Positions 24,145-56,637 of a stretch of DNA of 64,000 nt are shown here, in pieces. Source of the stretch: an uncultured Bacilli bacterium (GTDB taxonomy: Bacteria > Bacillota_I > Bacilli_A > ML615J-28 > CAG-313). Position 1 is the stretch's first letter. Every line of letters starts with the position of its first letter. Both the position numbers and the translations under genes were made by a program. The notes under the pieces are model-generated. The model saw nothing but the letters and a program-made list of their open reading frames with translations, searched no databases and had not been told where the DNA came from. The stretch covers positions 7,042-71,041 of the forward strand of contig CAKPBI010000006.1 of NCBI GenBank assembly GCA_934140285.1. Direction: 5' to 3'.

Positions 24145-24204
24145 TAAATTGTAATTTGAAATGCAACAAAAATTAAATTTAAATAATCGCTTGACTTTTA
24201 ATGG

Positions 24205-24257
24205 TATTATTCCGTTAATTTAAAAATATTATTCCGTAAACACTTGATATTATTCCG
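24205..24257 (+). promoter_or_regulatory. three direct repeats of TATTATTCCG at 21-22 bp spacing overlapping the Fic-1 promoter (TTGATA 24244-24249, TGnTATAAT around 24265-24272)
   Basis: The repeats lie at 24205-24214, 24227-24236 and 24248-24257, about two helical turns apart. The last one overlaps the -35 element. Confidence 0.5.
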
Positions 24258-24295
24258 CTAATGTTGTATAATAAATAAAAAGAGAGGTATAATCA

Positions 24296-25183
24296 ATGTA
24301 TATAACTGTAAAACAAGCTGCAGAAAAATGGAAAATTTCTGAAAGAAGAATCCGTACTCTATGTGCAGAAGGAAAAATAAATGGAGCATATCAAGAAGGA
24401 CGTGGATGGAAAATACCAATTGACGCTGAAAAACCAGCCGATGGAAGATACAAGTCAAAAGAAAGTCTTTTATTAGTTATAGATAAAAAGAAACAAGAAC
24501 TTGATAATAGAAGACCTCTAACTGAAGGTGAAGTCGCAAGACTTAATGAAGAATTTATAGTTGAATATACCTATAATTCTAATGCTATTGAGGGAAATAC
24601 GTTAACGTTAAGAGAAACCGATCTAGTACTTAGAGGTATTACGATTGATAAAAAGCCATTAAAAGATCATATTGAAGCAGCTGGACATAAAGAAGCATTT
24701 GAATATGTTAGTGAGTTAGTTAAAAATAATGTTCCATTAAGTGAAAGCATTATTAAACAAATTCATTTCTTAGTTTTAGCTGATAAAAAGTATGATAGGG
24801 GTGTATATCGTAAAATTCCTGTACGTATAATGGGAGCTTACCATGAACCTGTACAACCTTATCTAATTGAACCTAAAATGGTACAACTTTTAATAGATTA
24901 TAAAGAAAGTAAAGAACATATAATAACTAAGTTAGCTCGCTTTCATATTGAGTTTGAAGCTATTCATCCATTTATTGATGGAAATGGTAGAACAGGTAGA
25001 TTATTAGTTAATTTAGAACTAATGAAAGCCGGATATCCACCAATTGATATTAAATATATTGATCGTTTTGCATATTATAAAGCATTTGATGAGTATCATA
25101 CTAATCATAATTTATCAGCAATGGAAAATTTATTTGCAAAATATATTAATGAAAGACTTGACATGTATTTAAAAATCTTATAA
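24296..25183 (+). CDS. Fic-family AMPylator with N-terminal HTH DNA-binding domain (class II, auto-inhibited)
   Basis: The Fic motif HPFIDGNGRTGR is present. SNAIEG, upstream of it, matches the inhibitory (S/T)xxxE(G/N) motif. The N-terminal segment KQAAEKWKISERRIRTLCAEGKI is HTH-like. Confidence 0.8.
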   Translation: MYITVKQAAEKWKISERRIRTLCAEGKINGAYQEGRGWKIPIDAEKPADGRYKSKESLLLVIDKKKQELDNRRPLTEGEVARLNEEFIVEYTYNSNAIEGNTLTLRETDLVLRGITIDKKPLKDHIEAAGHKEAFEYVSELVKNNVPLSESIIKQIHFLVLADKKYDRGVYRKIPVRIMGAYHEPVQPYLIEPKMVQLLIDYKESKEHIITKLARFHIEFEAIHPFIDGNGRTGRLLVNLELMKAGYPPIDIKYIDRFAYYKAFDEYHTNHNLSAMENLFAKYINERLDMYLKIL

Positions 25184-25422
25184 TAAACCAATAGTAATTC
25201 AACAAAACTTAGCATTTGAATAACCATTAATTTAAAAACTCCCTATAAAAAAGTGTATAATTTAATTTGAAACAATAATTATCTTTAAAAAAAATTGAAT
25301 AATAAAAATAAATATAATATTAGTAGTAACTTCAAACTTGCAGATAGTAATGTTGGTACCACAAACGGGATTAACACCATTCCATTATATATGGCATTTT
25401 TAATAAAATAAAATTTATGAAA

Positions 25423-25495
25423 AGGAACTAGTATATATGAACTGAACACCATTGTTCATTGGTGTATTTCAATATTTAGTTCCTTTTTGATATTT
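25423..25495 (+). terminator. long hairpin (AAAGGAACTA...TAGTTCCTTTTT, inner ACACCA...TGGTGT) downstream of Fic-1
   Basis: The inverted repeat is followed by a T-run. It is a probable terminator or attenuator between Fic-1 and the sigma-like gene. Confidence 0.45.
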
Positions 25496-25587
25496 ATAAG
25501 TTATTAATAATTATTATAGTAATATATAAAGTAGTGGGAACCTTTTTTAATCTTTTACAACTATATAAGTGAAGAGGTAAATATTTC

Positions 25588-27198
25588 ATGAATGAAACTA
25601 TGAACAAAAAGGAATTAAAAGAAAAAGTCGTAGATTATGCTAGTAAAGTATTTTTCTATTGTATCAAAAGATGCAATAACAGAATGGATGCTGAAGACTT
25701 ATCACAAACAATTCTCCTAGAAATAATTCAAAATATTGATAAAGGTGCACAGATCAATAATATGGATTACTACATCTGGGGAGTTTGTAAGAATCAATAC
25801 AACATGTATTTACGAAAGACCATTAAAGAAAGAAATAAAATAGAATACAAAGATGTAATTGATGATGTAGATAATTCAAAAACGGTAATTGAAGAAATGC
25901 TTGAAGATGAAAAAATCAGAAGAATGAATCAAGCCATTAAATTACTAAGTAAAGATTATGCAGAAATACTTTACGCTTATTATGTAGAAGATAAAACCTT
26001 AAAGTTCATAGCTGAAGAATTAAACTTACCTCTTGGAACTGTTAAAAAAAGACTGTTCACGCTTAGAAAAAAGTTAAAGGAGTACTTAGATATGGAAAAG
26101 CTAAATGGCAAAAAAGCCTATGTACCAAAAGATTTTTCGGGTATAATGAGTAATGAAGGAGAAATTGATTTTTATCCTGACTATGAAACCTCCCCCTTAT
26201 TAATTAAAAACTTACTATATCATTCATACAATAACCCTTGTTCAATTGAAGATTACTCAATTGAGCTAGGCATATCTGTTGCGTATGTCGAGGACTATGT
26301 TAAACAACTCGTCAAAAAAGAATTTTTAATAAAACAAGATAATGGTAAATACCTAACAAATATTGCGTTCGCAGATAAAAAAACAAGAATCAAAATTCTT
26401 AAACTTGTAAAAGAGAATATTCATATTATTCAAAAGCCAATCGTTGAATTTTGTAAGAAAAACATTGAATATTATCGTTCTTTATTATTAAATAAAATTA
26501 ATAATGATGAATTATTGATGTGGTCACTAATTTTTATTGTAGAATTAGCAATAACAGAAAAAAAACCTTACAAGGGAACTAAAAAATGTAAAAATGGATC
26601 ATGGGATTATTGTATGGCAGAAAACATAAATACATGTAAAAGTAATGAATATTTCATTTCTTTTAATACAACATCAGTTGATGAATGTAATGTAGCCTTA
26701 ATTGCATGGCCATCCTCAGTATGTAATCCCAACTTTAAAGTAGGATATAGAACATCCTGGAATAATGCTGCAAATGGAAGAGAAGATTATCAATTATTCT
26801 CACATGTTTTGGAAAACGAATTAAAATATGATGAATTAGATACAGATACAAAAACATTAGTTGATAAGTATATAAGTAATAATTACTTAAAAGTTGAAAA
26901 TAATATAATTAAAGTTATTCCTCCTGTAATTTCTAAAAATAATTTATTAAAACTTTATAATTTCATTAAAAATGATACTACTCTTCAAAATGCATTCAAT
27001 GAATATTCTAAAAATGTTTATAAAGAGGTTGAAAAATTATTTCCTTCATACTTACATAATCAATTAGAATTCATTGTATCTTCATTCACCGTTACTCAAC
27101 GTTCATTAATAATTAATTATGCTTACAATGAGGGGCTATTGTCATTAGATGATGAACAAAAACATTTTGTTTATAATATGATGGTTGTAAAAAAATAA
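25588..27198 (+). CDS. ECF-type sigma-70 family protein (regions 2 and 4) with ~370-aa C-terminal extension of unknown function
   Basis: Region-2-like DAEDLSQTILLEI...YYIWGVCKNQY and region-4.2-like LNLPLGTVKKRLFTLRKKL are present. The C-terminal part has a wHTH-like segment and no known domain. The RBS is GAAGAGG. Confidence 0.55.
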   Translation: MNETMNKKELKEKVVDYASKVFFYCIKRCNNRMDAEDLSQTILLEIIQNIDKGAQINNMDYYIWGVCKNQYNMYLRKTIKERNKIEYKDVIDDVDNSKTVIEEMLEDEKIRRMNQAIKLLSKDYAEILYAYYVEDKTLKFIAEELNLPLGTVKKRLFTLRKKLKEYLDMEKLNGKKAYVPKDFSGIMSNEGEIDFYPDYETSPLLIKNLLYHSYNNPCSIEDYSIELGISVAYVEDYVKQLVKKEFLIKQDNGKYLTNIAFADKKTRIKILKLVKENIHIIQKPIVEFCKKNIEYYRSLLLNKINNDELLMWSLIFIVELAITEKKPYKGTKKCKNGSWDYCMAENINTCKSNEYFISFNTTSVDECNVALIAWPSSVCNPNFKVGYRTSWNNAANGREDYQLFSHVLENELKYDELDTDTKTLVDKYISNNYLKVENNIIKVIPPVISKNNLLKLYNFIKNDTTLQNAFNEYSKNVYKEVEKLFPSYLHNQLEFIVSSFTVTQRSLIINYAYNEGLLSLDDEQKHFVYNMMVVKK

Positions 27199-27274
27199 AT
27201 TTAACAGACTATTGTAATTTCTTATCTATTATGATAAAATGTAAGCATAAATAAAAATTAAGGAAAAATAGATA

Positions 27275-27373
27275 ATGTTTAAATTTGTATTTGACTTAGG
27301 AACTATACTTAATATTTTCTTAACAATCTTATATTTAATTATTATAATTAGTTTCCAGTTTGTAAAGATTTAG
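27275..27373 (+). CDS. 32-aa hydrophobic peptide ORF (MFKFVFDLGTILNIFLTILYLIIIISFQFVKI)
   Basis: It has a good RBS (AAGGAAAAATAGATAATG). It is absent from the ORF track because it is below 60 aa. It is speculative. Confidence 0.2.
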   Translation: MFKFVFDLGTILNIFLTILYLIIIISFQFVKI

Positions 27374-27401
27374 TTCTTGGGGTATAAAAAGAAATATATG
27401 T

Positions 27402-27656
27402 ATGACCTCAGAAGAACTATGGCATAAAGTACATGTAAATGCAAGTTTTGCGACCATTCCATTTTTACTAATAAGTACCTTGTTAATCTTTCTAAATAAC
27501 CTTTGGGTTAAGATTGTCGTAGGTTTACTATTATTGTTAATACTTCCAATGATATGGAATATCGTAGTAAAACTAACCCCAAAAAATAAATCACTTGAAT
27601 TAAGAAAACAAGAACAACAAGAATCAGAATCACAAATAAAAAAAGAATCATATTAG
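27402..27656 (+). CDS. small two-TM membrane protein, hypothetical
   Basis: This 84-aa ORF is hydrophobic, has a charged C-terminus and a weak RBS. Confidence 0.3.
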   Translation: MTSEELWHKVHVNASFATIPFLLISTLLIFLNNLWVKIVVGLLLLLILPMIWNIVVKLTPKNKSLELRKQEQQESESQIKKESY

Positions 27657-27996
27657 AATTAATAAAACACCTAATTTCTACCACCAACGCAACTAACTGG
27701 TGCAGTAAATTAAGCATAAAAAGTTGATAAATTATTTATAATGTTATATAATATTAGTGTAAAAGACCTCAAACAACGAAAGGAGTTGATTACTATGAAA
27801 ATCATGTTTTATAATAAATTAGAAGTAATCAAATCCTTTATAGGTACAGATATTTAATATTTTGTAGCAAGCATATAGAAACTATAGGCACTTCTAGTTT
27901 ATTAGAGGTGCTTTTTTGTTGCTACAAGAAAGGAGTGATAACATATGAAACAAATAACTTTAAAACGAAAAGAGGTATCTTACTATTAGCTTTGGC

Positions 27997-28185
27997 ATGA
28001 ATTTAAGAAAATTAAGAGAAAAGAAAAACTTATCTCAAGAAGCTCTTTCAAAAAAACTAAAGATTTCTAGACATTCAATATCCAAGTGGGAACAAGATAT
28101 AAGTTATCCTAGTATTTTGTATCTTATTCCCATCACTAAAATACTTGAATGTACACTAGATGAATTATTGAAAGATCTAAATTAG
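27997..28185 (+). CDS. XRE-family HTH regulator (62 aa)
   Basis: LSQEALSKKLKISRHSISKWEQ is the HTH_XRE signature. It is preceded by a 14-codon ORF (27946-27990) carrying the strong RBS AAAGGAG. Confidence 0.45.
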   Translation: MNLRKLREKKNLSQEALSKKLKISRHSISKWEQDISYPSILYLIPITKILECTLDELLKDLN

Positions 28186-28483
28186 AAAGAAGGAGTTAAG
28201 AATGAATGAATTTAAAGTATATAAGACAATCCATTCTTTAAACAAAGCAAAGAAAATCATGATATTCAATTCATTAAAGTTGTATTAAATAAATGGAATA
28301 TTATTATGAAAAACTATAATTTCTATAAAAGATGTTTATTGGAATTAGGATTTAAACAAAAAGATAATGAACTATTCACACTAGATGTTGAATAAAGATA
28401 ATTAAAAAAAGTTAGTATACAATAAATTAATTGTAAAATTTAAAAGATAATGAGACAAACATATAATATAATTTGACTTTAGG

Positions 28484-28607
28484 TAATACTTATCTTTTAA
28501 TGAATTCAAATAATAATAAATGATTGCTACCGGGCAAATGAATGTAAAGCATTCATATACTTATCGTTAGGTCCTTGAAGATAAGTATGTGAATGCTTAT
28601 TTTTTTG
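28484..28607 (+). promoter_or_regulatory. structured 5' leader with intrinsic terminator directly upstream of pnuC RBS (candidate riboswitch/attenuator)
   Basis: An 18-bp stem (28548-28565 paired with 28580-28598, one G-U) and T9 end 8 nt before the RBS GGAGGA. The upstream segment TAATACTTATC (28484-28494) can pair with the 3' stem half as an antiterminator. Confidence 0.45.
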
Positions 28608-28616
28608 GAGGATTAT

Positions 28617-29320
28617 ATGAAAATACTTAAAGCAATTGTAAAATACTTTTCAATAGGAGAAATTCTATTGTGGAGTTTCTCAACTATTTTAATTATTGCT
28701 TCATTTTGCCTTTTTGGTAAATCAAACTATCTAACTCTTGTAGCATCACTTATTGGTGTAACTTCTTTAATTTTTAATGAAAAAGGAAATCCTATAGGTC
28801 AAATTTTGATGATTATATTTAGTTTAGTTCATGGATACATTTCATTTATCTTCAAATAATATGGTGAAATGTTAACATATGTATGTATGACAATGCCGAT
28901 GGCAGTATTTGCTTTGGTATCTTGGTTAGCCCCCCTTTTAAAGGAGATAAAGCTGAAGTAGAAGTTAACAAACTAAAAAAGAATGAACCAATAATCATGT
29001 GGTTTTTAACAATTATTATAACAGTAATCTTCTATGTTATTTTAAGAGCCTTTAACACAAAAAACATTATTCCTAGTACAATCTCAGTAACCACAAGTTT
29101 TATTGCGGTATACCTTACTTTTAGAAGAAGTTCTTTTTATGCAATAGGTTATGCAACAAATGATATAGTACTAATTATACTATGGACTTTACCAACCATT
29201 GAAAACATATTTTACCTTTTTTGTAATTGTTTGTTTTATAACTTTTCTCGCAAACGATGTATATGGATTTATAAATTGGCAAAAGATGACTCAAAGGCAA
29301 TCAGATATAACAAAAGCATA
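28617..29320 (+). pseudogene. pnuC: nicotinamide riboside transporter PnuC, disrupted by at least 3 frameshifts
   Basis: The pieces lie in three frames: MKILKAIVKYFSIGEILLW...FIFK; YGEMLTYVCMTMPMAVFALVSWLAPL; and ...IMWFLTIIITVIFYVIL...ATNDIVLIILW. The final frame has ANDVYGFINWQKM, the PnuC C-terminal signature. One shift is at a C6 homopolymer (28930-28935). Confidence 0.5.
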
Positions 29321-29423
29321 AATAAAGAATGCCGTTATCGGCAATTTAACTTTTAAAATCAACAATTAATTACTTGATAATTTGCCGATAATGTGATATA
29401 ATAATCCTATATGGAGGTGTTTT

Positions 29424-30320
29424 ATGAATTATCTAAGCGTATTAGAAATTTCTAAACTTTGGAATTTGTCAGAACGCAGTGTTAGAAATTATTGTGCTAA
29501 TGGTAGAATCCCGGGAGCAATTCTTCTAGGTAAGACATGGATGATCCCAAGTAATGCTAAAAAACCAGAAAGAAAGAATAGAGAAAATTTTACTAAAAAT
29601 ACTTTACTTAATATTTTGAAACTTGAAAAAGCAACTAAGCTAAAAGGTGGAATATATCATAAAATTCAAATTGAACTTACATACAATTCTAATCATATGG
29701 AAGGAAGTAAACTTACTAGTGATCAAACTAGATATATTTATGAAACTAATACTATTGGTCAATCTAATGAAATAATAAATGTAGATGATATAATTGAAAC
29801 AGTTAACCATTTTAGATGTATTGATTTAATAATAGATAAAGCCAAACTTAATATTACAGAAAATCTCATAAAACAGCTTCATCTTATTTTAAAAAGTGAA
29901 ACGAGTGATAGTAGAAATAAATGGTTTGTTGTTGGTGATTATAAAAAATTACCAAGTGAAGTTGGCGGTCTTCCTACAACAAAACCAGAAAACGTCAAGG
30001 ATGAAATTAAAACTTTAATTGATTGGTATAACAATATTGAAACTAAAACATTAAATGACATAATTGAATTTTATTATCGTTTTGAATCTATTCATCCGTT
30101 CCAAGATGGTAATGGTAGAGTAGGAAGACTTTTAATGTTTAAAGAATGTTTAAAATACAATATTGTACCTTTTATAATAGATGATAATTTAAAAATGTTT
30201 TATTATAGGGGATTAAAAGAATGGCCAGTGGAAAAAGGGTATTTAATAGATATATGTAAGTCAGCTCAAGATCACTTCAAAAAATACTTAGATTACTTTA
30301 GAATTAAATATGATAAATAG
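29424..30320 (+). CDS. Fic-family AMPylator with N-terminal HTH (class II), paralog of 24296-25183
   Basis: HPFQDGNGRVGR is the Fic motif and SNHMEG the inhibitory motif. The N-terminal HTH is LEISKLWNLSERSVRNYCANGRI. A promoter TTGATA-17-TATAAT and the RBS TGGAGGTG are present. Confidence 0.8.
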   Translation: MNYLSVLEISKLWNLSERSVRNYCANGRIPGAILLGKTWMIPSNAKKPERKNRENFTKNTLLNILKLEKATKLKGGIYHKIQIELTYNSNHMEGSKLTSDQTRYIYETNTIGQSNEIINVDDIIETVNHFRCIDLIIDKAKLNITENLIKQLHLILKSETSDSRNKWFVVGDYKKLPSEVGGLPTTKPENVKDEIKTLIDWYNNIETKTLNDIIEFYYRFESIHPFQDGNGRVGRLLMFKECLKYNIVPFIIDDNLKMFYYRGLKEWPVEKGYLIDICKSAQDHFKKYLDYFRIKYDK

Positions 30321-30388
30321 ATAATTATTATAAAATTACTTCACTTTTTTAAAACTTTGTTACTATATTAGTGAAAGGAGGTATCATT

Positions 30389-31945
30389 ATGCAAAATAAA
30401 GAGCAATTAAAAGAATTAATAGCAAGTGAATATTTAAATAGATTCTTAACATTTTATATAAGCAGAACCTCTTCAATACAAGATGCGGAAGACTTATCAC
30501 AAAAGGCGGCCTGTGAGTGTTTAGATGCTTTAAGTCGTGTTGAAGAAATAAAGAATGTAAATGCTTATTTTTGGAGTATTGCTCATAATGTATATAAAAA
30601 CTACATTAATAGAAAAAATAATTATATTTTAGATGATGATTATTGTAAAATACAAATTATTGACACTTGCGATGATGAAAATAATGAAGAACAAACATTA
30701 CATAATGATATTAGAAAATCACTAAGTATCCTTTCAGGGTTATATCGTAAGATAATAGTACTTTACTATTATCATGAATTAAAAATCAAAGATATAGCCG
30801 AAAAACTTAATATTAGCCAAGACATGGTTAAGTATTATTTGTCAAATGGAAAGAAAAAGTTAAAGGAGATTTATGATATGAATAAGACAATCGGTGAAGT
30901 AAGCTTTAATCCTAAAGATTTTTCAATATACTATTCAGGAATTGATTTTACAAGCATAAACGTGTGGGAACTATTTAAAAGAAAATTACCATGTCAAATT
31001 GCCTTAATATGTTATGCTAAACCTAAATCAGTAACTGAAATTTCTAATGAAGTAGGTTGTAGTAGTTGTTACATTGAAGATGAAATTGCAATACTATTAA
31101 AAGCCGGAGTATTAATTGAAAAAGTAAAGAATAAATATCAAACAAATTTTTGCATTATCAGTAAAGAAGAACTTGATGTTATTGATACAATGTATAAAAA
31201 AATGTATGACGAATATGTAAAAGAAGTTGAAAAAGTTTTTAATGAACATTTTGAACAATTTAAACAAACAAATATTTATAATTATAAAGCTGAAATAGAT
31301 CAATACAAATGGATTTTTGTAGATAGAATCGCAGATATAGATAAAAGAAAGTTAGTTACTAAAGATTCAGATTATCCCAAAATTTTATCGTGTGGTGCAA
31401 GAGGATTAGTTTTTGGATTAGAAGCCAAAACTCCAAAAGGAGTATGTGGTCAAACCCCAACTTCATTAAATGATTATACCCTATGGGCAAGAGATTTATG
31501 GTTATCTAAAAACCATAGTTCCAATCAAGTAATCTTAAGAGATAAAGTAATAGCACAAACCGTCATTGATGTGTATAATGGTATAGTTGATAATAGTAAA
31601 GAAGAATTATATGCCTATTTAATTAAAAACAATATTTTAATTAAAGATAATGGAGTATTAAAAACGACTATTGCCTACTTAAATGAGGATTTTCAAAAAC
31701 TAATGGAAAACATCAATAATGATTTATACGTTAAATTAGAATCATCAACAAACAAAATTAAAGAATATTTAACAAAAATAATAACCAAATCAATTCCAAG
31801 TAATCTAAAAGAATATGTTAATGGATATGTTGTTATTTTAATGGAATTCTTTGCTGGTAACAAAATAATTCAAACTTTAATTGAAAATAATTTTTTAAAT
31901 GATAAAATAAAAAACATCCAAATTAGTTATTTTATCAATAAATAA
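30389..31945 (+). CDS. ECF-type sigma-70 family protein with ~350-aa C-terminal extension, paralog of 25588-27198
   Basis: Region 2 reads IQDAEDLSQKAACE...AYFWSIAHNVY. Region 4 reads YRKIIVLYYYHELKIKDIAEKLNISQDMVKYYLSNGKKKLKE. The RBS AAGGAGG precedes the ATG at 30389. The domain order matches the first sigma-like gene. Confidence 0.55.
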   Translation: MQNKEQLKELIASEYLNRFLTFYISRTSSIQDAEDLSQKAACECLDALSRVEEIKNVNAYFWSIAHNVYKNYINRKNNYILDDDYCKIQIIDTCDDENNEEQTLHNDIRKSLSILSGLYRKIIVLYYYHELKIKDIAEKLNISQDMVKYYLSNGKKKLKEIYDMNKTIGEVSFNPKDFSIYYSGIDFTSINVWELFKRKLPCQIALICYAKPKSVTEISNEVGCSSCYIEDEIAILLKAGVLIEKVKNKYQTNFCIISKEELDVIDTMYKKMYDEYVKEVEKVFNEHFEQFKQTNIYNYKAEIDQYKWIFVDRIADIDKRKLVTKDSDYPKILSCGARGLVFGLEAKTPKGVCGQTPTSLNDYTLWARDLWLSKNHSSNQVILRDKVIAQTVIDVYNGIVDNSKEELYAYLIKNNILIKDNGVLKTTIAYLNEDFQKLMENINNDLYVKLESSTNKIKEYLTKIITKSIPSNLKEYVNGYVVILMEFFAGNKIIQTLIENNFLNDKIKNIQISYFINK

Positions 31946-32023
31946 TAACTTATAAAGTTACAAAAAACTAAATATAGTATATAATATTAAAGAAAACAAA
32001 TAAACTTAAGATAAGGTGATATC

Positions 32024-32731
32024 ATGAAAACATATAGTACTCCCCATTATATTTTTACATATGAAGAAGGAAGTCTTGCGGAAAAAGACATCAAAATGAT
32101 TGCTGATGTCCAAGAAAATAGTTTCAACAAAATATGTGAAACATTAAAAGTAGATTTTCCTGAAAAAATAAAATACTATTTATTAGATTCAAAAGAAGAA
32201 GTTGGAAAACTATATGGTGATAACACTCCTATTAATGGTTTTGCTGTATGGGGAGAAAACAAAGTTTATGTAGTTTATAACAATGATACAAAATGCATTG
32301 GCCCACATGAAGATGCTCATCTTATCTCATTTATTATTAATGCTCCCATATCTGACTTTATTGTTGAAGGCCTCGCAATGTACTTTGACAAAGAATGGTG
32401 GAGACAATCAAATGATAGCTGGGCAGCATATTATAAAAAGAATGATGATACTCTATCTATTTTGAAATTACTAGATAACAATGAATTCTTCAAATATAAT
32501 TGTGAACTAACATATCCCATAGCAGGTTCATTTACTAAATTTTTAATTGAAACTTTTGGTATTTCAAAATACCTCGAACTATACAAAATAAAAACGGAAA
32601 TAAAAAAAGAAGATTTTGAAAATATATTTAACCTTACTCCTTTTGAAATAGAAACAATGTATTGGAATAAAATTAAAGAAATTCCGTTTAATTCAAAAAT
32701 TTTCAAAAAACTATTAAATGATAACAAGTAA
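32024..32731 (+). CDS. hypothetical protein with HEXXH motif (possible small zinc-dependent peptidase)
   Basis: The only recognisable motif is HEDAHLISF. It is a 235-aa protein with no signal peptide. The RBS is AAGGTGA. Confidence 0.35.
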   Translation: MKTYSTPHYIFTYEEGSLAEKDIKMIADVQENSFNKICETLKVDFPEKIKYYLLDSKEEVGKLYGDNTPINGFAVWGENKVYVVYNNDTKCIGPHEDAHLISFIINAPISDFIVEGLAMYFDKEWWRQSNDSWAAYYKKNDDTLSILKLLDNNEFFKYNCELTYPIAGSFTKFLIETFGISKYLELYKIKTEIKKEDFENIFNLTPFEIETMYWNKIKEIPFNSKIFKKLLNDNK

Positions 32732-32749
32732 AATAAAGAGGTATCATCC

Positions 32750-33256
32750 ATGATTAATTTAGTTAAATTAAATTACACAAGCGATAAAGTAGATGAAATA
32801 TTAAAGGAAATGGCCATAATTACGATTGATAATTTATCATACATTTATGGCGATGATATGAAGTCAAATGAAAACATCAAAAGTTATGTAGAATACAAAA
32901 AACAAGCTAAACCCATAACATACTTAATGCATGATGAAACATCAATATTTGGATACTTAACTTTAAGTTTAAGTTCAAAGATATTATATATTGAAGATAT
33001 CCAAATTAAAAATAGCTATCGTAATAATCCAGGAGTCATGTCAATGATTCTAAAAACTATTACTATAGAGTATCTAGAAAATAAAAATCAAATTGATAAA
33101 GTTGTATACTACATTAATAAAAAGAATAAACTTTCACAACATAACTTTTCAAAATTTGCTGAAAAGACCGAAGAAACCAAAAACAGCTATATGTATGCAC
33201 TTAATTTAGAACATCCATTTATTGTAAAGATGATTGATAAAGTAAAAAAGCAATAA
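32750..33256 (+). CDS. putative GNAT-family acetyltransferase
   Basis: At 168 aa it has a GNAT-like size and a weak motif around IEDIQIKNSYRNNPGVMSMIL. Confidence is low. A terminator hairpin lies at 33262-33290. Confidence 0.35.
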   Translation: MINLVKLNYTSDKVDEILKEMAIITIDNLSYIYGDDMKSNENIKSYVEYKKQAKPITYLMHDETSIFGYLTLSLSSKILYIEDIQIKNSYRNNPGVMSMILKTITIEYLENKNQIDKVVYYINKKNKLSQHNFSKFAEKTEETKNSYMYALNLEHPFIVKMIDKVKKQ

Positions 33257-33295
33257 AATAAGTCTAGTAGGAATAAAACTACTAGACTATTTTTA

Positions 33296-33324
33296 TTGAC
33301 AAAACTAATGTGATTAGTTATAAT
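33296..33324 (+). promoter_or_regulatory. consensus sigma-70 promoter (TTGACA-17-TATAAT) with embedded palindrome AACTAAT-GTG-ATTAGTT (33303-33319) upstream of tetR
   Basis: The -35 and -10 elements are perfect. The 7-bp inverted repeat lies within the spacer and is a likely TetR operator. Confidence 0.6.
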
Positions 33325-33351
33325 ATAACTACAATTAGTTTGGAGGCCAAT

Positions 33352-33918
33352 ATGTCTAAAAATAATATTAACGAACAACTTATTATTGAAACAGCAGCAT
33401 CCCTAGTTAATAAAGTAGGTTTAACTAATTTATCATTAAAACTAGTGGCAGAAGAATTAAATATTAAATCACCATCTTTATATAATCATATTTCTAGTTT
33501 GGAAGAACTAAAATCCAAACTTATGATCTATGGATGGAGATGCCTTGAAGAAAAGATAATTGATGCTGCAGTAGGAGTAACTGGATATGATGCTATAAAA
33601 AATATGTGTTATGCCTTTTATGATTATGCTACAACTAATAAAGGTATATTTACAACAATGCTTTGGTACAACAAATTTGAAAGTGTGGAAAAAGCTACAA
33701 CAAAACTATTTAATATTGTATTTAAAATAATGAAACCACTAAATATTAGTGAAGATAATATAAATCATATAATAAGAACACTAAGAGGATTCTTAGATGG
33801 CTTTGCTTTGCTTGTAAATAACGATGCATTTGGCAATCCGCTTCCTATAAAGGAAAGTTTTGATTTATCCCTTGAAATAATTATTAATGGCATAAAAACC
33901 CTAGAAGGAGTGAACTAA
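33352..33918 (+). CDS. TetR/AcrR-family transcriptional regulator
   Basis: The N-terminal HTH reads IETAASLVNKVGLTNLSLKLVAEELNIKSPSLYNHI. The RBS is TGGAGG. Confidence 0.7.
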   Translation: MSKNNINEQLIIETAASLVNKVGLTNLSLKLVAEELNIKSPSLYNHISSLEELKSKLMIYGWRCLEEKIIDAAVGVTGYDAIKNMCYAFYDYATTNKGIFTTMLWYNKFESVEKATTKLFNIVFKIMKPLNISEDNINHIIRTLRGFLDGFALLVNNDAFGNPLPIKESFDLSLEIIINGIKTLEGVN

Positions 33919-33919
33919 A

Positions 33920-34678
33920 ATGAATGATTATATCAATTTAACGCATGATAACATTGAAAAAGAACATATTTGTTGTGCCATTGGAGACAAAAAACATCAA
34001 AAAGGTGTTGAAAAGAAAAAACAATGGATTGAAAGAAAACTTGATGATGGTCATATTTTTCGAAAACTAAATGCTAGAGGCAAAGTATTTATAGAATATG
34101 AACCAATTGAAACCGCATGGGTACCAATCAATGGACATAATTATGAATATATTTATTGCTTGTGGGTAGCTGGTAGTTTCAAAGGAAAAGGAATTGCAAA
34201 AGAACTTTTAGAATATGCCATAGCTGACGCAAGATCAAAAGGTATGAGTGGTATTTGTACAATAACTTCCAAAAAGAAAAAACCTTTTATTGGCGAAAAA
34301 GCCTTCTACCTTCATTATAACTTTAAAGTAGTAGATGAAATTGATGATTATGAACTACTAGCATTAGAATTTAATAATGATGAGACACCTAAATTTAATG
34401 AAAATGCAAAACTTATGAAAATAGATAATCAAGACTTTACAATTTATTATAGTAATGAGTGTCCTTATGTTGAATATGAAGTAGAAGAACTTAGTGAATA
34501 TGCGAAAAATAATAATATAATAATTAACTTCATAAAAGTTGATACATTAGAAAAAGCTAAAAGTGTACCTTGTATTTTTAACAATTGGGCTAACTTTTAT
34601 AAGGGTAAGTTCATATCAAACACAATTCTAAACGCTAATGCTTTAGAAAAATTAATTAAAAGTTTAAATAATGACTAA
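33920..34678 (+). CDS. GNAT-family N-acetyltransferase with YoaP-like C-terminal domain
   Basis: CLWVAGSFKGKGIAKELLEYAIADAR is the acetyl-CoA binding Q/RxxGxG/A-like motif. The architecture is two-domain. Confidence 0.55.
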   Translation: MNDYINLTHDNIEKEHICCAIGDKKHQKGVEKKKQWIERKLDDGHIFRKLNARGKVFIEYEPIETAWVPINGHNYEYIYCLWVAGSFKGKGIAKELLEYAIADARSKGMSGICTITSKKKKPFIGEKAFYLHYNFKVVDEIDDYELLALEFNNDETPKFNENAKLMKIDNQDFTIYYSNECPYVEYEVEELSEYAKNNNIIINFIKVDTLEKAKSVPCIFNNWANFYKGKFISNTILNANALEKLIKSLNND

Positions 34679-38662: not shown

Positions 38663-39148
38663 ATGAAAAATCAAATTGAAAAAACCAATGCTATCAGAAT
38701 AATAGAACAAAAGAAACTAAATTATCAATTTCATAACTATGTAGGTACAAGTGCTATCTCAGGAGAAGACGTTGCAAAAGTCTTAAATCAAGATCCCAAC
38801 CACGTATTTAAAACTTTAGTTACTATTGGAAAATCAAATAATCATTATGTCTTTTTAGTTCCTGTTAATATGGAATTAGATTTAAAGAAAGCTGCAATAG
38901 CCGTAAATGAAAAAAACATTGAAATGATTAAATCAAAAGATTTACTTCCTCTCACAGGCTATATTCATGGTGGATGTTCACCAATAGGCATGAAAAAGCA
39001 ATTTACAACCATTATCGATGAATCAGCAATTCTTTACGATACTATCATGTTTAGTGGTGGCAAAATAGGCTATCAGGTAGAAATGTCCATCGATGAACTA
39101 AGTAAAGTAGTGGAGTTTAAACTTGCGGATATCACTAAAAATCGATAA
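38663..39148 (+). CDS. ybaK: Cys-tRNA(Pro)/Cys-tRNA(Cys) deacylase YbaK
   Basis: The 161-aa size and the motifs ...HVFKTLV...GYIHGGCSPIG... follow the YbaK/ProX pattern. Confidence 0.65.
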   Translation: MKNQIEKTNAIRIIEQKKLNYQFHNYVGTSAISGEDVAKVLNQDPNHVFKTLVTIGKSNNHYVFLVPVNMELDLKKAAIAVNEKNIEMIKSKDLLPLTGYIHGGCSPIGMKKQFTTIIDESAILYDTIMFSGGKIGYQVEMSIDELSKVVEFKLADITKNR

Positions 39149-39194
39149 AGTGCAATCGATATACTAAAATCGATAAAAAGGTATCGATTATATC
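39141..39194. repeat. four ATCGAT(A) palindromes phased at exactly 14 bp (39141, 39155, 39169, 39183) upstream of the adh promoter
   Basis: The units are atcgataaagtgca, atcgatatactaaa, atcgataaaaaggt and atcgattatatcaa. A consensus promoter (TTGACA 39238-39243, TATAAT 39261-39266) follows. Confidence 0.6.
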
Positions 39195-39294
39195 AAATAT
39201 GATATAATTATATAAAAACTTCATATATTTTAACCCTTTGACATTACATTTTACTTGCAGTATAATATTAATGTATCTAAAGGAGGTATTTGAA

Positions 39295-40512
39295 ATGTTT
39301 AGATTTACTTTACCTAGAGACCTTTATCATGGAAAAGGATCGCTAGAAGCACTTAAAACCCTAACAGGTAAAAAAGCCGTTATCTGTGTTGGTGGCGGAA
39401 GTATGAAAAAATTTGGTTTCTTAGACCGTGCTATCAATTATTTACAAGAAGCTGGTATGGAAGTAGCTGTTATTGATGGTATTGAACCAGACCCATCTGT
39501 TGAAACAGTTATGGCTGGAGCTCAAAAAATGCTTGAGTTTGGACCAGACTGGATCGTTGCAATCGGTGGAGGATCTCCAATCGATGCAGCAAAAGCTATG
39601 TGGATTAAATATGAATATCCTACAGTAACTTTTGAAGATATGTGTAAAGTATTTGGTTTACCAAAATTAAGAACAAAAGCTCATTTCTGTGCTGTTTCAT
39701 CTACATCTGGTACTGCAACAGAAGTTACTGCTTTTTCAATCATTACTGATTATAAGAAAGGTATTAAATACCCAATTGCAGACTTTGAAATTACACCTGA
39801 TGTTGCAATCGTTGATCCTGAACTTGCAGAAACAATGCCTAAGAAGTTAGTTGCCCATACTGGTATGGATGCAATAACTCATGCTATCGAAGCATATGTA
39901 TCCACTGCTCATTGTCATTATTCAGATCCACTATCTATTTTCGCAATCAAAATGATTCAAAAAGATTTAGTTTCATCTTACAATGGTGATATGGTTGCAC
40001 GTGATGCAATGCATGATGCACAATGCTTAGCTGGTATGTCATTCTCTAACGCTCTACTTGGTATCGTTCACTCAATGGCTCATAAGACCGGTGCTGCATT
40101 TGATGACTACGGAGCACACATTATTCATGGTGCAGCAAACGCAATGTATCTTCCAAAAGTAATTGCTTTCAATGCTAAAAACCCTGAAGCTTTAAAACGT
40201 TATGGCGAAATCGCAGATTATATGAATCTTGGTGGAAACACTGATGAAGAAAAAGTTCAACTTTTAATCAAAGCTTTAAGAAAAATGAATGATGATTTAA
40301 ATATTCCTCATTGTATTAAGAACTATGGCTTAGATAGTTATCCAACTGAAAATGGATTTGTTCCTGAAGAAGTATTCCTAGAAAGATTACCTGAAATTGC
40401 TAAAAACGCAATTGGCGATGCTTGCACAGGATCTAACCCTCGTATTCCAACACAAAAAGAAATGGAAGAACTTCTTAAGTGTTGCTATTACGATACAGAA
40501 GTTAATTTCTAA
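39295..40512 (+). CDS. iron-containing alcohol dehydrogenase (butanol/1,3-propanediol dehydrogenase family)
   Basis: GGGSPIDAAKA and the His-rich metal site motifs (HTGMDAITHAIEAY, HSMAHKTG) are present. A perfect promoter, the RBS AGGAGG and a terminator at 40518-40545 flank it. Confidence 0.85.
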   Translation: MFRFTLPRDLYHGKGSLEALKTLTGKKAVICVGGGSMKKFGFLDRAINYLQEAGMEVAVIDGIEPDPSVETVMAGAQKMLEFGPDWIVAIGGGSPIDAAKAMWIKYEYPTVTFEDMCKVFGLPKLRTKAHFCAVSSTSGTATEVTAFSIITDYKKGIKYPIADFEITPDVAIVDPELAETMPKKLVAHTGMDAITHAIEAYVSTAHCHYSDPLSIFAIKMIQKDLVSSYNGDMVARDAMHDAQCLAGMSFSNALLGIVHSMAHKTGAAFDDYGAHIIHGAANAMYLPKVIAFNAKNPEALKRYGEIADYMNLGGNTDEEKVQLLIKALRKMNDDLNIPHCIKNYGLDSYPTENGFVPEEVFLERLPEIAKNAIGDACTGSNPRIPTQKEMEELLKCCYYDTEVNF

Positions 40513-40560
40513 AAAAATGAGTCCCCTAAGGGACTCTTTTATAAAAAGGTAGGTAAAATA

Positions 40561-41088
40561 ATGAAACTAGAAGAAAAGAAAATATCCTCAGAAGAAATTT
40601 ATAAAGGCAAAATATTAAATTTATACAAAGATAAAGTTTTATGTCCAAATGGTAAAACATCATACCGTGAGGTAGTAAGACATTGTAAAGCCGTATGTAT
40701 TATTGCAGAACTTGATGGAAAGTATGCCATTGAAGAACAATATCGCTATCCATATGATGAGGTAATCCTTGAGTTTCCTGCTGGTAAAGTTGATAAGGAT
40801 GAAGACTTAACGACTGCGGCTATCCGTGAGTTGGAAGAAGAAATTGGATATCATGCGGAAACCATTGAATATTTAGGTGATATGTATCCAAGTTGTGCAT
40901 ATACTGACGAAATCATTTCTTTATATTTTGCGACTAACCTAGTTAAGACTCATCAATCACTTGATGAAAATGAAGCATTAAATTATAAGTTTATAACTCT
41001 AGAAGAAATAAAGGAACTAGTAGTTACTAATAAAATTAAAGACGCTAAAACACTTTGTGCTTTACAACTTTTCCTATTAAAAAAATAA
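40561..41088 (+). CDS. NUDIX hydrolase (ADP-ribose pyrophosphatase-like)
   Basis: The Nudix box is EFPAGKVDKDEDLTTAAIRELEEEIGY. Confidence 0.7.
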   Translation: MKLEEKKISSEEIYKGKILNLYKDKVLCPNGKTSYREVVRHCKAVCIIAELDGKYAIEEQYRYPYDEVILEFPAGKVDKDEDLTTAAIRELEEEIGYHAETIEYLGDMYPSCAYTDEIISLYFATNLVKTHQSLDENEALNYKFITLEEIKELVVTNKIKDAKTLCALQLFLLKK

Positions 41089-41116
41089 TGCCGGATTAAA
41101 ATCCGACATTTTTTCT

Positions 41117-42067
41117 TTATTTATTATATTTATAGAAACCTTCACCAGATGCCATACCAAGTTTTCCAGCATCAATATATTCTTTCAACATCTTTGCCAT
41201 ACCTTTAAAATTATAAGGAGCAAGGAATGAAGGAATCTTAACATACATTGAAACAATGTTATAGGCAGTTGTAAGACCTACGATATCAAGAATTTGGAAA
41301 GGTCCTTTAGGAGCACCTGTACCAAGTACCCATGCTTTATCGATACTTTCAGGATCAGAAATTCCATTTACGTATAAATCCATACCTGAGAAAAGAAGAG
41401 GAACAAGCATTGAATTTAATAAATATCCTGATTTTTCTTTTTTAACTGGAAGTGGAATCATACGGATTTGTTTTGCAAATTCCATGATTTCATCAAAATA
41501 CTTCATATTAGTTTTAGCTTGAGCCATAACTTCAGTCATATTGTTTTTCCAAATAGAGTTAGCGAAATGTAATGATAAATATTTGTCAGGTCTTCCAGTG
41601 TATTTAGCAAACTTAGATGGAAGAAGTGTAGATGAATTAGTTACAATAACAGTTTTAGCTGGTAAAACTAATGCTAACTTTTTATAAAAATTAACTTTTT
41701 CTTCTACATTTTCTGCCATTGATTCAATAATTAAATCAGCATCTTCAACTGCTTTTGCAAGATCTAATTCTAATTTAATAGAACTATATGCATTTTCAGA
41801 TTTCTTTAAACATTCTTCCATATTAAATGCTTCAAAATCAGCAATTCCTCTAGCCCAATTAGCAGGAGTTTGACCTTCCTTAGTTGCCATTAATTCAATA
41901 GTTTCCTTGTAAACTTTTCTTAAGTTATCAAGCTTAGGTTGAGTTCTGCCAATACTACCTTCGCTTCTTAGCCAGATAGTTACTTCAAAACCACAATATG
42001 CTGCTTGGTATGCGATTTGGCTTCCTAGTACGCCACCACCAGCAATAACAATCTTTTTATAATTCAT
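41117..42067 (-). CDS. 3-hydroxyacyl-CoA (3-hydroxybutyryl-CoA) dehydrogenase
   Basis: The Rossmann motif IAGGGVLGSQIAYQAA is N-terminal. The HCDH-family C-terminal domain is present. A hairpin at 41089-41115 is shared with the upstream + gene. Confidence 0.7.
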   Translation of the reverse strand: MNYKKIVIAGGGVLGSQIAYQAAYCGFEVTIWLRSEGSIGRTQPKLDNLRKVYKETIELMATKEGQTPANWARGIADFEAFNMEECLKKSENAYSSIKLELDLAKAVEDADLIIESMAENVEEKVNFYKKLALVLPAKTVIVTNSSTLLPSKFAKYTGRPDKYLSLHFANSIWKNNMTEVMAQAKTNMKYFDEIMEFAKQIRMIPLPVKKEKSGYLLNSMLVPLLFSGMDLYVNGISDPESIDKAWVLGTGAPKGPFQILDIVGLTTAYNIVSMYVKIPSFLAPYNFKGMAKMLKEYIDAGKLGMASGEGFYKYNK

Positions 42068-42105
42068 ATATTACCTCCTAAAATAATACTTTTACATTTT
42101 ATCAT

Positions 42106-42174
42106 ATCGATAAAAAAATATCAATATAAATACAATATAAATTGATAAAAATTTATCGATTTGTTTGTATCGAT
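42106..42174. repeat. ATCGAT palindromes (42106, 42155, 42169; the last two 14 bp apart) in the divergent hbd / lipoprotein-apbE-rnf promoter region
   Basis: This is the same motif and the same 14-bp phasing as at 39141-39188. The consensus promoter TTGACT(42291-42296)-17-TATAAT(42314-42319) drives the + operon. Confidence 0.5.
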
Positions 42175-42327
42175 TTAAAATATGGTAATTTTTACATGTT
42201 CAACCTAAAAAATGATTTAACGGAAATTTCCTATTATAAAAAATGAAATACATTATTCGATAAAATTATATCAAATTAATTATTAAATTCTTGACTTTAA
42301 AGATTAAATATGCTATAATTATACTGC

Positions 42328-51199: not shown

Positions 51200-52057
51200 A
51201 TGGACAAGTTTAAATTAAATCAAATTGTTTTAAAAGAAGAACTAAACCCAACTGTAACAAAAATGGAAGTTTATTCTCCTTTTATTGCTAAGAAAGCTGA
51301 ACCAGGAGAATTTATTATCTTAAGAGTTGATGAGTCTGGTGAAAGAATTCCTCTAACTGTTGCTGGTTACGACCGTGAAAAAGGAACAGTTACAATTATT
51401 TTCCAAATAGTTGGTGGAACAACTATGTTATTAAACAACCTAAATGAAGGCGATTGCATTCATGACTTTGTAGGTCCACTTGGAAAAGCAACTGAAACTG
51501 AAGGATTAAAGAAAGTTGCAGTTGTTGGTGGTGGTGTTGGTTGTGCTATCGCATTACCTGTCGCTAAAAAATTACATGACATAGGTTGTGAAGTTCACTC
51601 AGTTATTGGATTTAGAAATAAAGATTTAGTTATCTTAGAAAAAGAATTCACTGAAGCAAGTGACAAACTATGCTTAATGACAGATGATGGTAGTTATGGA
51701 ACTAAAGGTTTAGTAACTAACGCATTAGAAGAATTAATTAAAGCAGGAAATGAATATGATGAAGTAATCGCTATTGGACCACTTATCATGATGAAGTTTG
51801 TTACATTATTAACAAAGAAATATAACATCAAAACAGTTGTAAGTATGAACCCAATTATGATCGATGGTACTGGTATGTGTGGATGCTGTCGTTTAACAGT
51901 AGGTGGCAAAACTAAATTTGCCTGTGTTGATGGTCCTGATTTCGACGCATTTGAAGTCGACTTTGATGAAGCTATCTCAAGATCTAGAAGTTATACAGAT
52001 TTTGAAGCAAGAGCAAGAGAAAAATCTTGTAATTTATTGAAAAAAGAGGTTAAATAA
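51200..52057 (+). CDS. PyrK-like FAD/[2Fe-2S] oxidoreductase subunit (NfnA / sulfide dehydrogenase SudB-like)
   Basis: It has a ferredoxin-NADP reductase-type fold and a C-terminal cysteine cluster CGCCRLTVGGKTKFACVDGP. It pairs with the gltD-like gene. Confidence 0.7.
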   Translation: MDKFKLNQIVLKEELNPTVTKMEVYSPFIAKKAEPGEFIILRVDESGERIPLTVAGYDREKGTVTIIFQIVGGTTMLLNNLNEGDCIHDFVGPLGKATETEGLKKVAVVGGGVGCAIALPVAKKLHDIGCEVHSVIGFRNKDLVILEKEFTEASDKLCLMTDDGSYGTKGLVTNALEELIKAGNEYDEVIAIGPLIMMKFVTLLTKKYNIKTVVSMNPIMIDGTGMCGCCRLTVGGKTKFACVDGPDFDAFEVDFDEAISRSRSYTDFEARAREKSCNLLKKEVK

Positions 52058-55221: not shown

Positions 55222-56319
55222 ATGATTATAGATTCTCATTTACATTTTTCCTTGCCATCTCTTGTTGAAGATGTACTAGAAGCCCTTGATTTAACAAACT
55301 GTCAGTATGGAAACTTAGTTGCACAAATAAACATGTATCAATCATCAGAAACTCTTGACTGTTTGTTTGCGAAAGCAAAATCAAATCACCGATTATATAC
55401 TTATGGTAGCTTAGATCCAACAGAATATATAAAAAGGACTAACATGGGTGAAAATCTAATAGAACATGTAAAAAAAATTATGAAATGTGGATGTGATGGC
55501 ATTAAAATGCTTGAAGGAAAGCCTGATGAAAGAAAAAGATTTCCTATCCCTGATTTTGATAGTGAAGAATTTGATAAATTATTTTCTTACTTAGAAAAAG
55601 AAAAAATCAACATCATCTGGCATGTTAATGATCCTGAAGAATTCTGGGATGAAACTAAAATACCAGAATGGGCTAAAAGAGAAGGTTGGTTTTATGATGA
55701 AAGTTATGTCAATAATCTTGATCAATATCGTCAAGTAGAAAAAGTCTTAAAAAAACATCCTAATCTTCACATTACATTTGCTCACTTTTTCTTTCTCTCA
55801 AAAAACTTAGAAAAACTTTCAAAACTATTTGATTCCTATCCTAATATATCAGTAGATATAACCCCAGGAATTGAACTATTTACCAACCTCTCTCAAAATA
55901 TTAAAGAAGCAAGAACTTTCTTTATTAAGTATGCCGACCGTATAATCTATGGAACTGACATATCTCATCTAAACACCGATACTGATCGTGAATTTAACAA
56001 AGAAGATGCCATCATAAGAGGAAATCTATGCTATAGCTTTCTAACGAAAGAAAGAGTAAACCTCAAAGGAAACGAAAAATCCCTACTTGGTAAAGAAGAC
56101 CTCGAAATCAATGGATTAAATCTCCCAAGTGAAATAGTAAAAAAAATATGTTATAGTAACTTCTATAACAAAAACGGACAACCTAAAGAAATTAACAAGG
56201 AAGAAATACTCCAAGAAATTGAAAGAGAAAGGCAAAGAATTACATTTTTATCAAAGTATTATAAATTTAAACCAGATTATACAAAATTAGATTGCTTAAA
56301 AACTTACTTTGAACAATAA
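55222..56319 (+). CDS. amidohydrolase-family (metal-dependent TIM-barrel hydrolase) protein
   Basis: The N-terminus MIIDSHLHF is the amidohydrolase_2 HxH motif. It is translationally coupled to the GH3 gene. Confidence 0.5.
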   Translation: MIIDSHLHFSLPSLVEDVLEALDLTNCQYGNLVAQINMYQSSETLDCLFAKAKSNHRLYTYGSLDPTEYIKRTNMGENLIEHVKKIMKCGCDGIKMLEGKPDERKRFPIPDFDSEEFDKLFSYLEKEKINIIWHVNDPEEFWDETKIPEWAKREGWFYDESYVNNLDQYRQVEKVLKKHPNLHITFAHFFFLSKNLEKLSKLFDSYPNISVDITPGIELFTNLSQNIKEARTFFIKYADRIIYGTDISHLNTDTDREFNKEDAIIRGNLCYSFLTKERVNLKGNEKSLLGKEDLEINGLNLPSEIVKKICYSNFYNKNGQPKEINKEEILQEIERERQRITFLSKYYKFKPDYTKLDCLKTYFEQ

Positions 56320-56345
56320 AATCATAAAAAAAATTATACCAATTA

Positions 56346-56374
56346 TTGACAGAATTTTTATACTATGGTATAAT
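56346..56374 (+). promoter_or_regulatory. consensus sigma-70 promoter TTGACA-17-TGgTATAAT starting a ~255-nt leader ahead of the paralog array
   Basis: TTGACA lies at 56346-56351 and TATAAT at 56369-56374 with an extended -10 TG. No long ORF is present until 56638. Confidence 0.55.
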
Positions 56375-56637
56375 TATGTTAAGGTTTGGGCCACCCATAA
56401 TTAATAAAAGATTAACTGGAGAAAGGCATTAATCAATTATTAATTATACAATTGAATATTAGTTAATCAAAATGATTAAATATTTGTATGCTAGGTAGAA
56501 TACGCTTTTGCCTCTGACGTAAGGGTAAAAGTCGTAGACTGCCAATAATAGGATGCAGGTTTTTAGTCATTTTTTAAATAATAGGACGCTTAAGCATATG
56601 CATATAATGAAAGAGAAAAAAGGAGAATAAAATAATT

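Follow-up and report, generated by a model that had tools for sequence, protein, structure and literature searches.

Two clusters of the palindrome ATCGAT, phased at a step of 14 bp, stand next to genes for NADH-linked fermentation enzymes in a 64-kb stretch of a contig from an uncultured Bacilli bacterium (contig CAKPBI010000006.1, positions 7,042 to 71,041; referred to here as the window). The reading that we favor, with a probability of roughly 0.7, is that these clusters are chained operators of a Rex-family repressor that senses the NADH/NAD+ ratio and that belongs to the clade described by the NCBIfam model NF003994. The unit would be a 20-bp inverted repeat, tATCGATa-N6-tATCGATa, which is equal to TCGATAW-N4-WTATCGA and would hold one Rex dimer, as the canonical Rex dimer is held by TTGTGAA-N4-TTCACAA. 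At a low NADH/NAD+ ratio the arrays would be occupied by Rex, which would keep down the expression of the NADH-consuming enzymes encoded beside them, an iron-type alcohol dehydrogenase (Fe-ADH) at array 1 and a 3-hydroxyacyl-CoA dehydrogenase (3HCDH) at array 2; a rise in NADH would take Rex off the DNA and allow both to be expressed. We rate the arrays as a Rex operator with an altered specificity and a capacity for chaining, and not as a new class of element.

Array 1 (39141-39188) consists of four ATCGAT cores at 39141, 39155, 39169, and 39183, at a step of exactly 14 bp, and these form three overlapping 20-bp operators (39141-39160, 39155-39174, and 39169-39188). Array 2 lies between the minus-strand 3HCDH gene and a lipoprotein-apbE-rnf operon and has exact cores at 42106, 42155, and 42169, the last two again 14 bp apart. 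For both arrays the positions and steps are those given in a preliminary description of the window. Array 2 additionally includes two cores with one mismatch, ATCAAT at 42120 and ATTGAT at 42141; the first is in register with 42106, the second with 42155 and 42169. The 49 bp from 42106 to 42155 amount to 3.5 steps, a half-period offset that places 42106 out of the register of 42155, and array 2 therefore comprises two sub-arrays, 42106/42120 and 42141/42155/42169. The former is operator O1 (42106-42125, ATCGATAAAAAAATATCAAT, one mismatch), and the latter, spanning 42141-42174, contains O2 (42141-42160, ATTGAT...ATCGAT) and O3 (42155-42174), which have core 42155 in common.

This phasing is far outside what base composition produces. 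ATCGAT-N8-ATCGAT pairs occur four times in the window and not once in 100 dinucleotide-preserving shuffles, and simple arithmetic gives approximately 0.012 pairs at exactly 14 bp if the 28 ATCGAT sites of the window are placed at random. With up to two mismatches allowed, the window has nine pairs where 2.7 are expected, six of them in the two clusters. Over-representation of the hexamer, an objection raised in the preliminary description, does exist in the window (28 copies versus 10.1 in dinucleotide shuffles, approximately 2.8-fold), yet all truly intergenic copies are within the two arrays, and the 21 genic copies are mostly (16) Ile-Asp codon pairs read in frame. Intergenic DNA was defined here with a mask of open reading frames (ORFs) of at least 100 amino acids (aa); a copy at 37773 that this mask flagged as intergenic is inside a 98-aa Dabb gene.

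Rewritten as a(TCGATAA-N4-TTATCGA)t, the pair ATCGAT-N8-ATCGAT is a 7-N4-7 inverted repeat, as in the Rex operator. The logo built from 84 sites reads t(77%)ATCGATa(86%)-W6-t(86%)ATCGATa(77%). Because TCGA is self-complementary, a core can belong to two neighboring operators, closing one as its right half and opening the next as its left half, and it is this sharing by chained operators that accounts for the exact 14-bp register. Simultaneous use of one core by two dimers is presumably excluded; four cores would then hold two dimers, or offer three alternative registers, and the stoichiometry on four cores is probably two dimers. Three 14-bp steps span 42 bp, or four helical turns.

The same architecture recurs in other genomes at genes that belong together in Rex biology. 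A scan for three cores in 14-bp register, of the kind that the preliminary description had proposed, covered one genome per species for 185,579 species and returned at least 120 loci. The matches listed split into plain 7- or 14-bp tandem repeats, many of them, in GC-rich genomes, versus promoter-type arrays, with approximately 30 that have TATCGATA-like cores and variable AT-rich spacers directly upstream of genes. Among these listed matches, at least 15 arrays precede rex genes, whose products are proteins of approximately 215-240 aa with an N-terminal LRRLPxY and the domains PF06971 and PF02629; at least five precede adhE, at least four precede Fe-ADH genes orthologous to that of the window, at least three precede genes for NuoE/HydC-type [2Fe-2S] hydrogenase subunits, and at least one precedes the L-lactate dehydrogenase gene, ldh. 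A rex gene lies within 8 kb at 17 of the 120 array loci listed. These are the genes that a Rex regulon classically contains, autoregulation included, and the NF003994-type rex genes that adjoin arrays span Firmicutes, Chloroflexi, Spirochaetes, Syntrophorhabdaceae, and Verrucomicrobia. The longest array seen, seven ATCGAT cores in one unbroken 14-bp register, is in a Treponema metagenome-assembled genome (MAG; L057:1733-1822), where no convincing gene adjoins it, only a 97-aa ORF. An 8-kb locus of a Bacillota MAG (L022) has arrays at 196-229 and 1937-1970, one directly upstream of a variant rex and the other 1.7 kb away at the contig edge.

To avoid the circularity of loci selected by motif, 80 metagenome loci were picked by Rex protein similarity alone. 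All of these but one (L189) encode the wing pattern G(K/R)P(K/R/N/H/G)xG(Y/F). In the 250 bp upstream of the 65 unique rex genes, pairs of TCGA number 18 at a spacing of 14 bp and 11 at 13 bp, with at most three at each other spacing from 4 to 45 bp, and the density of such pairs is approximately 50-fold above that in the rest of the same loci. Two or more cores in register were found at 32 of 58 unique variant-rex promoters; since 29 of these 32 have a single pair, the elementary unit is a single 20-bp inverted repeat. A position weight matrix (PWM) trained only on these foreign rex promoters places the six operators of the window as the top six sites in 64 kb, with 19.3, 18.9, and 21.0 bits for the successive operators of array 1 and 19.3, 17.8, and 21.4 bits for O1, O2, and O3 (range 17.8-21.4), followed by a next-best score of 8.4 bits. 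The best flanks among the window operators are those of 39169-39188, 42106-42125, and 42141-42160.

Among the protein-selected loci, the 13-bp step (ATCGAT-N7-ATCGAT) was seen upstream of rex at L157, L161, L166, L168, L171, L179-L181, and L189, and the wing of this subgroup is mostly GRPKIGY, which suggests that core spacing co-varies with the Rex protein subgroup. Core variants that keep the geometry include CTCGAT-N8-CTCGAT and the inverted repeat TAGATA...TATCTA (L160, L195, L206; L194, L204), and across the variants upstream of rex, position 2 of the half-site drifts to C or A and G3 is retained. Protein searches yielded Rex sequences in the thousands that came with no genomic context. 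One low-GC and frequently encountered candidate, P0198, led to gut contigs, which tetranucleotide correlation did not assign to the source genome.

ATCGAT is also the recognition sequence of known restriction-modification systems, and clustered methylation sites in promoters can regulate, so that the arrays might instead be targets of a ClaI-type DNA methyltransferase that act through methylation, either epigenetically or in restriction-modification. We give this reading hardly any weight: it leaves the fixed spacing of 14 bp (or 13 bp), the conserved T and A flanks, and the linkage to one Rex clade across phyla unexplained, and the variants CTCGAT and TAGATA retain the geometry but lose the ClaI site.

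Comparison of strains separates cores from spacers. In six strains or assemblies, among them the GTDB representative ("uncultured Bacilli bacterium", a Hadza gut MAG), array 1 shows no change at any of its 24 core positions, as against changes at 8 of 24 spacer positions; the intergenic region of array 2 is identical in four strains and is hence uninformative on conservation. In relatives, where the preliminary description had suggested that upstream regions be compared, the adh side bears out conservation: the ADH orthologues in L054, L125, and L223 are likewise preceded by arrays in 14-bp register. At L223:4874-4921, upstream of an ADH with 91% identity, the cores ATAGAT, ATAGAT, ATCGAT, and ATTTAT keep the 14-bp register, lie as far from the ATG as the array of the window does, and are again upstream of the -35, although the gene upstream differs from that of the window and encodes an HD-domain protein. 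The same comparison fails on the side of 3HCDH and rnf, as discussed below.

A simple tandem repeat (minisatellite) was considered for these clusters and rejected, given that only the 6-bp cores are common to the copies and the spacers differ both between copies and between strains. The more general proposition that the arrays have no function and are either a tandem repeat of low identity or a coincidental cluster in AT-rich intergenic DNA draws on the report by Tandem Repeats Finder of a 14-bp repeat with 73% matches at array 1, on the excess of ATCGAT in the window, and on the many plain tandem repeats returned by the genome scan. It is nonetheless very improbable in view of the absence of even one N8 pair from 100 shuffles, the invariance of the cores against spacers that vary between strains, the position of both clusters at promoters of redox genes, the way in which a foreign-trained PWM singles out the window operators, and the architecture that rex and adhE promoters of distant phyla share. 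As regards NADH-linked fermentation genes, the proposal of the preliminary description that the sites are operators of a single regulator is supported by cores that stay invariant as their spacers drift and by the recurrence of such arrays, in many phyla, upstream of rex, adhE, Fe-ADH, ldh, and hydrogenase genes.

The proteins encoded next to the arrays are Rex proteins of a distinct type. Their best match in the PDB is the Rex structure 3WG9 (E = 4e-39), and their best NCBIfam model is NF003994 in every case, as compared with NF003989 for Bacillus subtilis Rex. In the Thermotoga maritima Rex-DNA-NAD+ structure, Arg48 forms bonds to the G of half-site position 3, positions 5 and 6 are the ones that Lys49 reads, and Arg60 and Gly61, from the wing, bond to the two T bases of positions 2 and 1 (PMC8836258). 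Mapped onto this structure (PMC8836258), the stretch QVRKD is kept in 14 of 14 array-linked Rex proteins and in P0014, the annotated Rex of Hungateiclostridium thermocellum, and the array-linked clade retains the equivalents of the Arg, Lys, Gln, Gly58, and Tyr64 (T. maritima numbering). The wing, G(K/R)P(K/R)xG(Y/F), is where the clade departs: Arg60 is replaced by Pro and Gly61 by Lys, and the conserved Arg/Lys-Gly readers of the wing are not present. The retained Arg and Lys readers would fit the retained G3 and A6 of the operator, and the change of the wing to Pro-Lys would fit the change at position 2 from T to C.

One member of this clade is in a well-studied organism. The gene order at P0014, rex-adhE-APH-hypothetical-FeS-SpoIIE, agrees with that of Cthe_0422-0427 of Clostridium thermocellum (PMC3848806), where Cthe_0422 (Rex_1799 or Clo1313_1799) is a second Rex paralogue located upstream of adhE. 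Its promoter, TTGACT-17-TAAAAT, is followed by the cores ATCGAT, ATCGAT, ACCGAT, and ATCGAT at L207 positions 5862, 5876, 5890, and 5904, an exact 14-bp register. Rex_1799 falls in the same clade (NF003994) as the array-linked Rex proteins and is 59% identical to the one of L072, and its promoter resembles the window in having a four-core array in 14-bp register. The two differ in placement, with the C. thermocellum array directly after its own -10 and overlapping the transcription start and the adh array of the window upstream of the promoter; C. thermocellum is, moreover, an organism of another class than the source of the window. Rex_1799 is only 34-36% identical to characterized Rex proteins, and in the study concerned a motif is given for its canonical paralogue Rex_2471, and none for Rex_1799 (PMC8457756). 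No binding motif for Cthe_0422 is reported in searchable papers, a search that did not extend to subscription papers and regulon databases. Cthe_0422-0432 were among the most repressed genes after addition of furfural, which drains NAD(P)H (PMC3848806), and this down-regulation of the rex-adhE operon is in the direction expected for a Rex-type repressor, an indirect hint of such control.

It could be asked whether a Rex of the canonical type binds the arrays as degenerate Rex boxes. The geometry is identical, the operator at 42142-42159 (TTGATAAAAATTTATCGA) comes within three mismatches of the clostridial consensus, and position 4 is variable even in the crystallized T. maritima operator (PMC8836258). 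We consider this quite improbable in light of the divergence of most operators from the consensus at three positions per half-site and of the loci selected by protein that bear the motif, which encode the Pro-Lys/Arg wing type (all but L189 fit the pattern). In C. thermocellum, furthermore, the motif obtained for Rex_2471 by DNA affinity purification sequencing (DAP-seq) and electrophoretic mobility shift assay (EMSA) is TTGTTAA-N4-TTAACAA (PMC8457756), and the ATCGAT array stands at the promoter of the other paralogue.

Scans of the window with published patterns agree with the preliminary description that the motif is neither the Rex nor the CcpA (cre) consensus. The arrays do not match the published Rex consensus forms TTGTGAANNNNTTCACAA and TTGTTAANNNNTTAACAA, scans with which gave no more than chance would at the arrays, the operator at 42142-42159 being the only one within three mismatches in the window scan. 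The sole one-mismatch match to the clostridial form in the window (TTGTTACATTATTAACAA, 51798-51815) is inside an ORF (51200-52057); a match of this quality arises in 13% of shuffles, and this one is probably due to chance. The CcpA cre site WTGNAANCGNWNNCW was set aside as a candidate, with 29 matches of at most one mismatch versus 27 expected in the window, the level of chance; only one such match, at 39179-39193, touches an array. The preliminary description implies a regulator other than Rex, and this is not supported, as the arrays have the geometry of a Rex operator and are found at the own genes of a distinct Rex clade. Rex boxes in searchable papers are of the general and clostridial forms only, and no description of an ATCGAT-type box was found in them, with subscription papers and regulon databases outside the search. 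Ravcheev and co-workers reportedly described the clostridial form as the sole exception in 2012.

Together, these observations lead us to propose, tentatively and at slightly less than even odds, that the large and widespread NF003994 clade has a separate DNA specificity, TATCGATA-N6-TATCGATA, that arose from a re-tuned wing (Arg-Gly to Pro-Lys); that it governs a second, parallel Rex regulon where a canonical Rex co-exists, as in C. thermocellum; and that it acts on chained operators, whose number of cores could tune the sharpness of the NADH response.

Several observations weigh against assigning the arrays of the window to Rex. Binding by this clade is read from sequence, and it is from the linkage and geometry described above that we infer both the binding of the arrays by Rex and its response to NADH. 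Searches by tblastn and profile HMM found no rex gene in the 64-kb window, and we likewise infer that an NF003994-type Rex is encoded elsewhere in the source genome. No pair of cores in register is present at 26 of the 58 variant-rex promoters. Operators 39141-39160 and 39155-39174 have A and not the preferred T before the right-hand core and would be half-quality sites. The adh array lies 50-100 bp upstream of the -35, with 49 bp between its end and that element, an arrangement repeated in the related species L223, and simple blocking of the promoter is therefore an insufficient account of repression there. Lastly, no ATCGAT pair was found upstream of four 3HCDH orthologues with 82-86% identity (L217:3660-4000, L215, L219, and L221); one of these, on a Hadza gut contig of 30% GC, has the same divergent lipoprotein-ApbE-Rnf layout and no array. 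Because these orthologues are without it, array 2 is a species-level gain. Turnover of sites is, reportedly according to Ravcheev and co-workers in 2012, usual for Rex.

The first three of these points, along with a half-site that differs from every published Rex box, could also be accommodated if a different transcription factor controlled rex and the fermentation genes through the arrays and Rex itself did not bind them. This we regard as unlikely. The NF003994-type rex is the only gene that consistently adjoins arrays across phyla, and a second factor would need to co-occur with this Rex clade in at least five of them; the 7-N4-7 geometry and the bases G3 and A6, moreover, fit the Arg and Lys readers that the clade has retained. 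Rex as the repressor that binds the arrays thus continues to be the preferred explanation.

The genes and promoters around the arrays, as named in the preliminary description, were borne out by promoter scan, Pfam, and NCBIfam. Array 1 begins at the end of a plus-strand gene for a Cys-tRNA(Pro) deacylase (YbaK; 38663-39148; Pfam tRNA_edit, TIGR00011), the TAA stop codon of which (39146-39148) overlaps core 1; a terminator scan found none between this gene and adh. Downstream, a sigma-70 promoter with 12 of 12 consensus matches (TTGACA-17-TATAAT, 39238-39266, plus strand) precedes the Fe-ADH gene (39295-40512, plus strand, ATG at 39295), whose product is nearest to the ADH half of AdhE by Pfam and NCBIfam. 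This gene is the best-supported target of array 1. A terminator-like hairpin readable on both strands follows it at 40519-40536, and adh is therefore likely monocistronic. A possible extended -10, TGaTATAAT (39200-39208, plus strand), can be read from the sequence as a putative upstream promoter P2, in which case core 4 would occupy the position of its -35; the element is kept in six strains and absent from L223, and for want of conservation in that species, a promoter overlapping array 1 is not relied on here.

At array 2, the NAD-linked 3HCDH is encoded on the minus strand (41117-42067; Pfam; NF006143 at 389.8 bits, above the cutoff), and a promoter-like site on the same strand (42096-42124) has a -35 TTGATA at 42124-42119, a -10 TAAAAT at 42101-42096 with an upstream TG, and 10 of 12 matches. 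O1 covers this -35 and the spacer, and 3HCDH is likely the target of O1-O3 in the source species. The preliminary description had the sites mark the promoters of the block, which holds only for 3HCDH, given the gap noted above at adh. Its extension to ferredoxin-linked genes through rnf is weak. The lipoprotein-apbE-rnf promoter found by promoter scan is at 42291-42319, with its -35 more than 115 bp downstream of the strong operators of array 2. The only site near it is TTCGATAAAATTATATCAAA (42256-42275), 16 bp before that -35, which has the seventh-best PWM score of the window at 8.4 bits and whose membership among the operators is doubtful; the related species that shares the 3HCDH/rnf layout, as noted, has no array. 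No Rfam family was found at E <= 1 in the intergenic region of either array. A further terminator-like hairpin (41087-41110), also readable on both strands, lies between a NUDIX gene and the convergent 3HCDH gene. The window itself has a G+C content of 0.24-0.27 at 22000-34000 and 56000-62000 versus 0.30-0.34 elsewhere, and its proteins turn up again in human-gut assemblies, Hadza ones among them; the closest named relatives of the source organism are "Coprobacillus sp. CAG:698" and gut MAGs labeled "Bacilli bacterium".

Rex is the main switch by which anaerobes fit their fermentation enzymes to the NADH/NAD+ ratio, and regulon maps of gut and industrial bacteria rest on scans with the canonical Rex box. 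If the assignment proposed here is correct, a second Rex regulon is invisible to canonical Rex matrices, and targets of the NF003994 clade are at present missed, including adhE of C. thermocellum, which is key for cellulosic ethanol, and the alcohol and acyl-CoA dehydrogenases of uncultured gut Bacilli. The motif would then offer a cheap and direct functional handle on the second Rex paralogue, two natural Rex/operator systems that do not cross-react and could be used in redox-responsive synthetic circuits, and a residue-to-base hypothesis, wing Pro-Lys versus C at position 2, for shifts of specificity in winged-helix proteins.

The system that the arrays most closely resemble is the Rex operator (ROP), in its general form, TTGTGAA-N4-TTCACAA, and in that of the Clostridiaceae, TTGTTAA-N4-TTAACAA, both of which are likewise 7-N4-7 and take one dimer. 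The half-site of the arrays, TCGATAW, keeps T1, G3, and A6 of the ROP as well as T5 of the clostridial form, but it has C at position 2, where the ROP has T, and A at position 4; counting the T at position 5, which also departs from the general TTGTGAA, there are six differences per operator from the general consensus, and canonical Rex matrices therefore miss the arrays. Like the ROP, the arrays are found at the promoters of rex itself and of adhE, adh, ldh, and hydrogenase genes, and the logic expected of them would be the same, repression relieved by NADH. Unlike the ROP, they have a self-complementary core that permits chaining through shared cores in a 14-bp register, and the proteins linked to them have a Pro-Lys wing instead of Arg-Gly. 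In this chaining, they call to mind the met-box arrays of MetJ, where repressor dimers bind cooperatively to palindromic 8-bp boxes in tandem: in both cases short self-complementary units are arranged head to tail in a fixed register, and the number of units sets how many repressor dimers can bind. The likeness is one of arrangement, as the period is 14 bp and not 8 bp, and MetJ is a ribbon-helix-helix protein that responds to S-adenosylmethionine, whereas Rex joins a winged helix to a Rossmann domain and responds to NADH.

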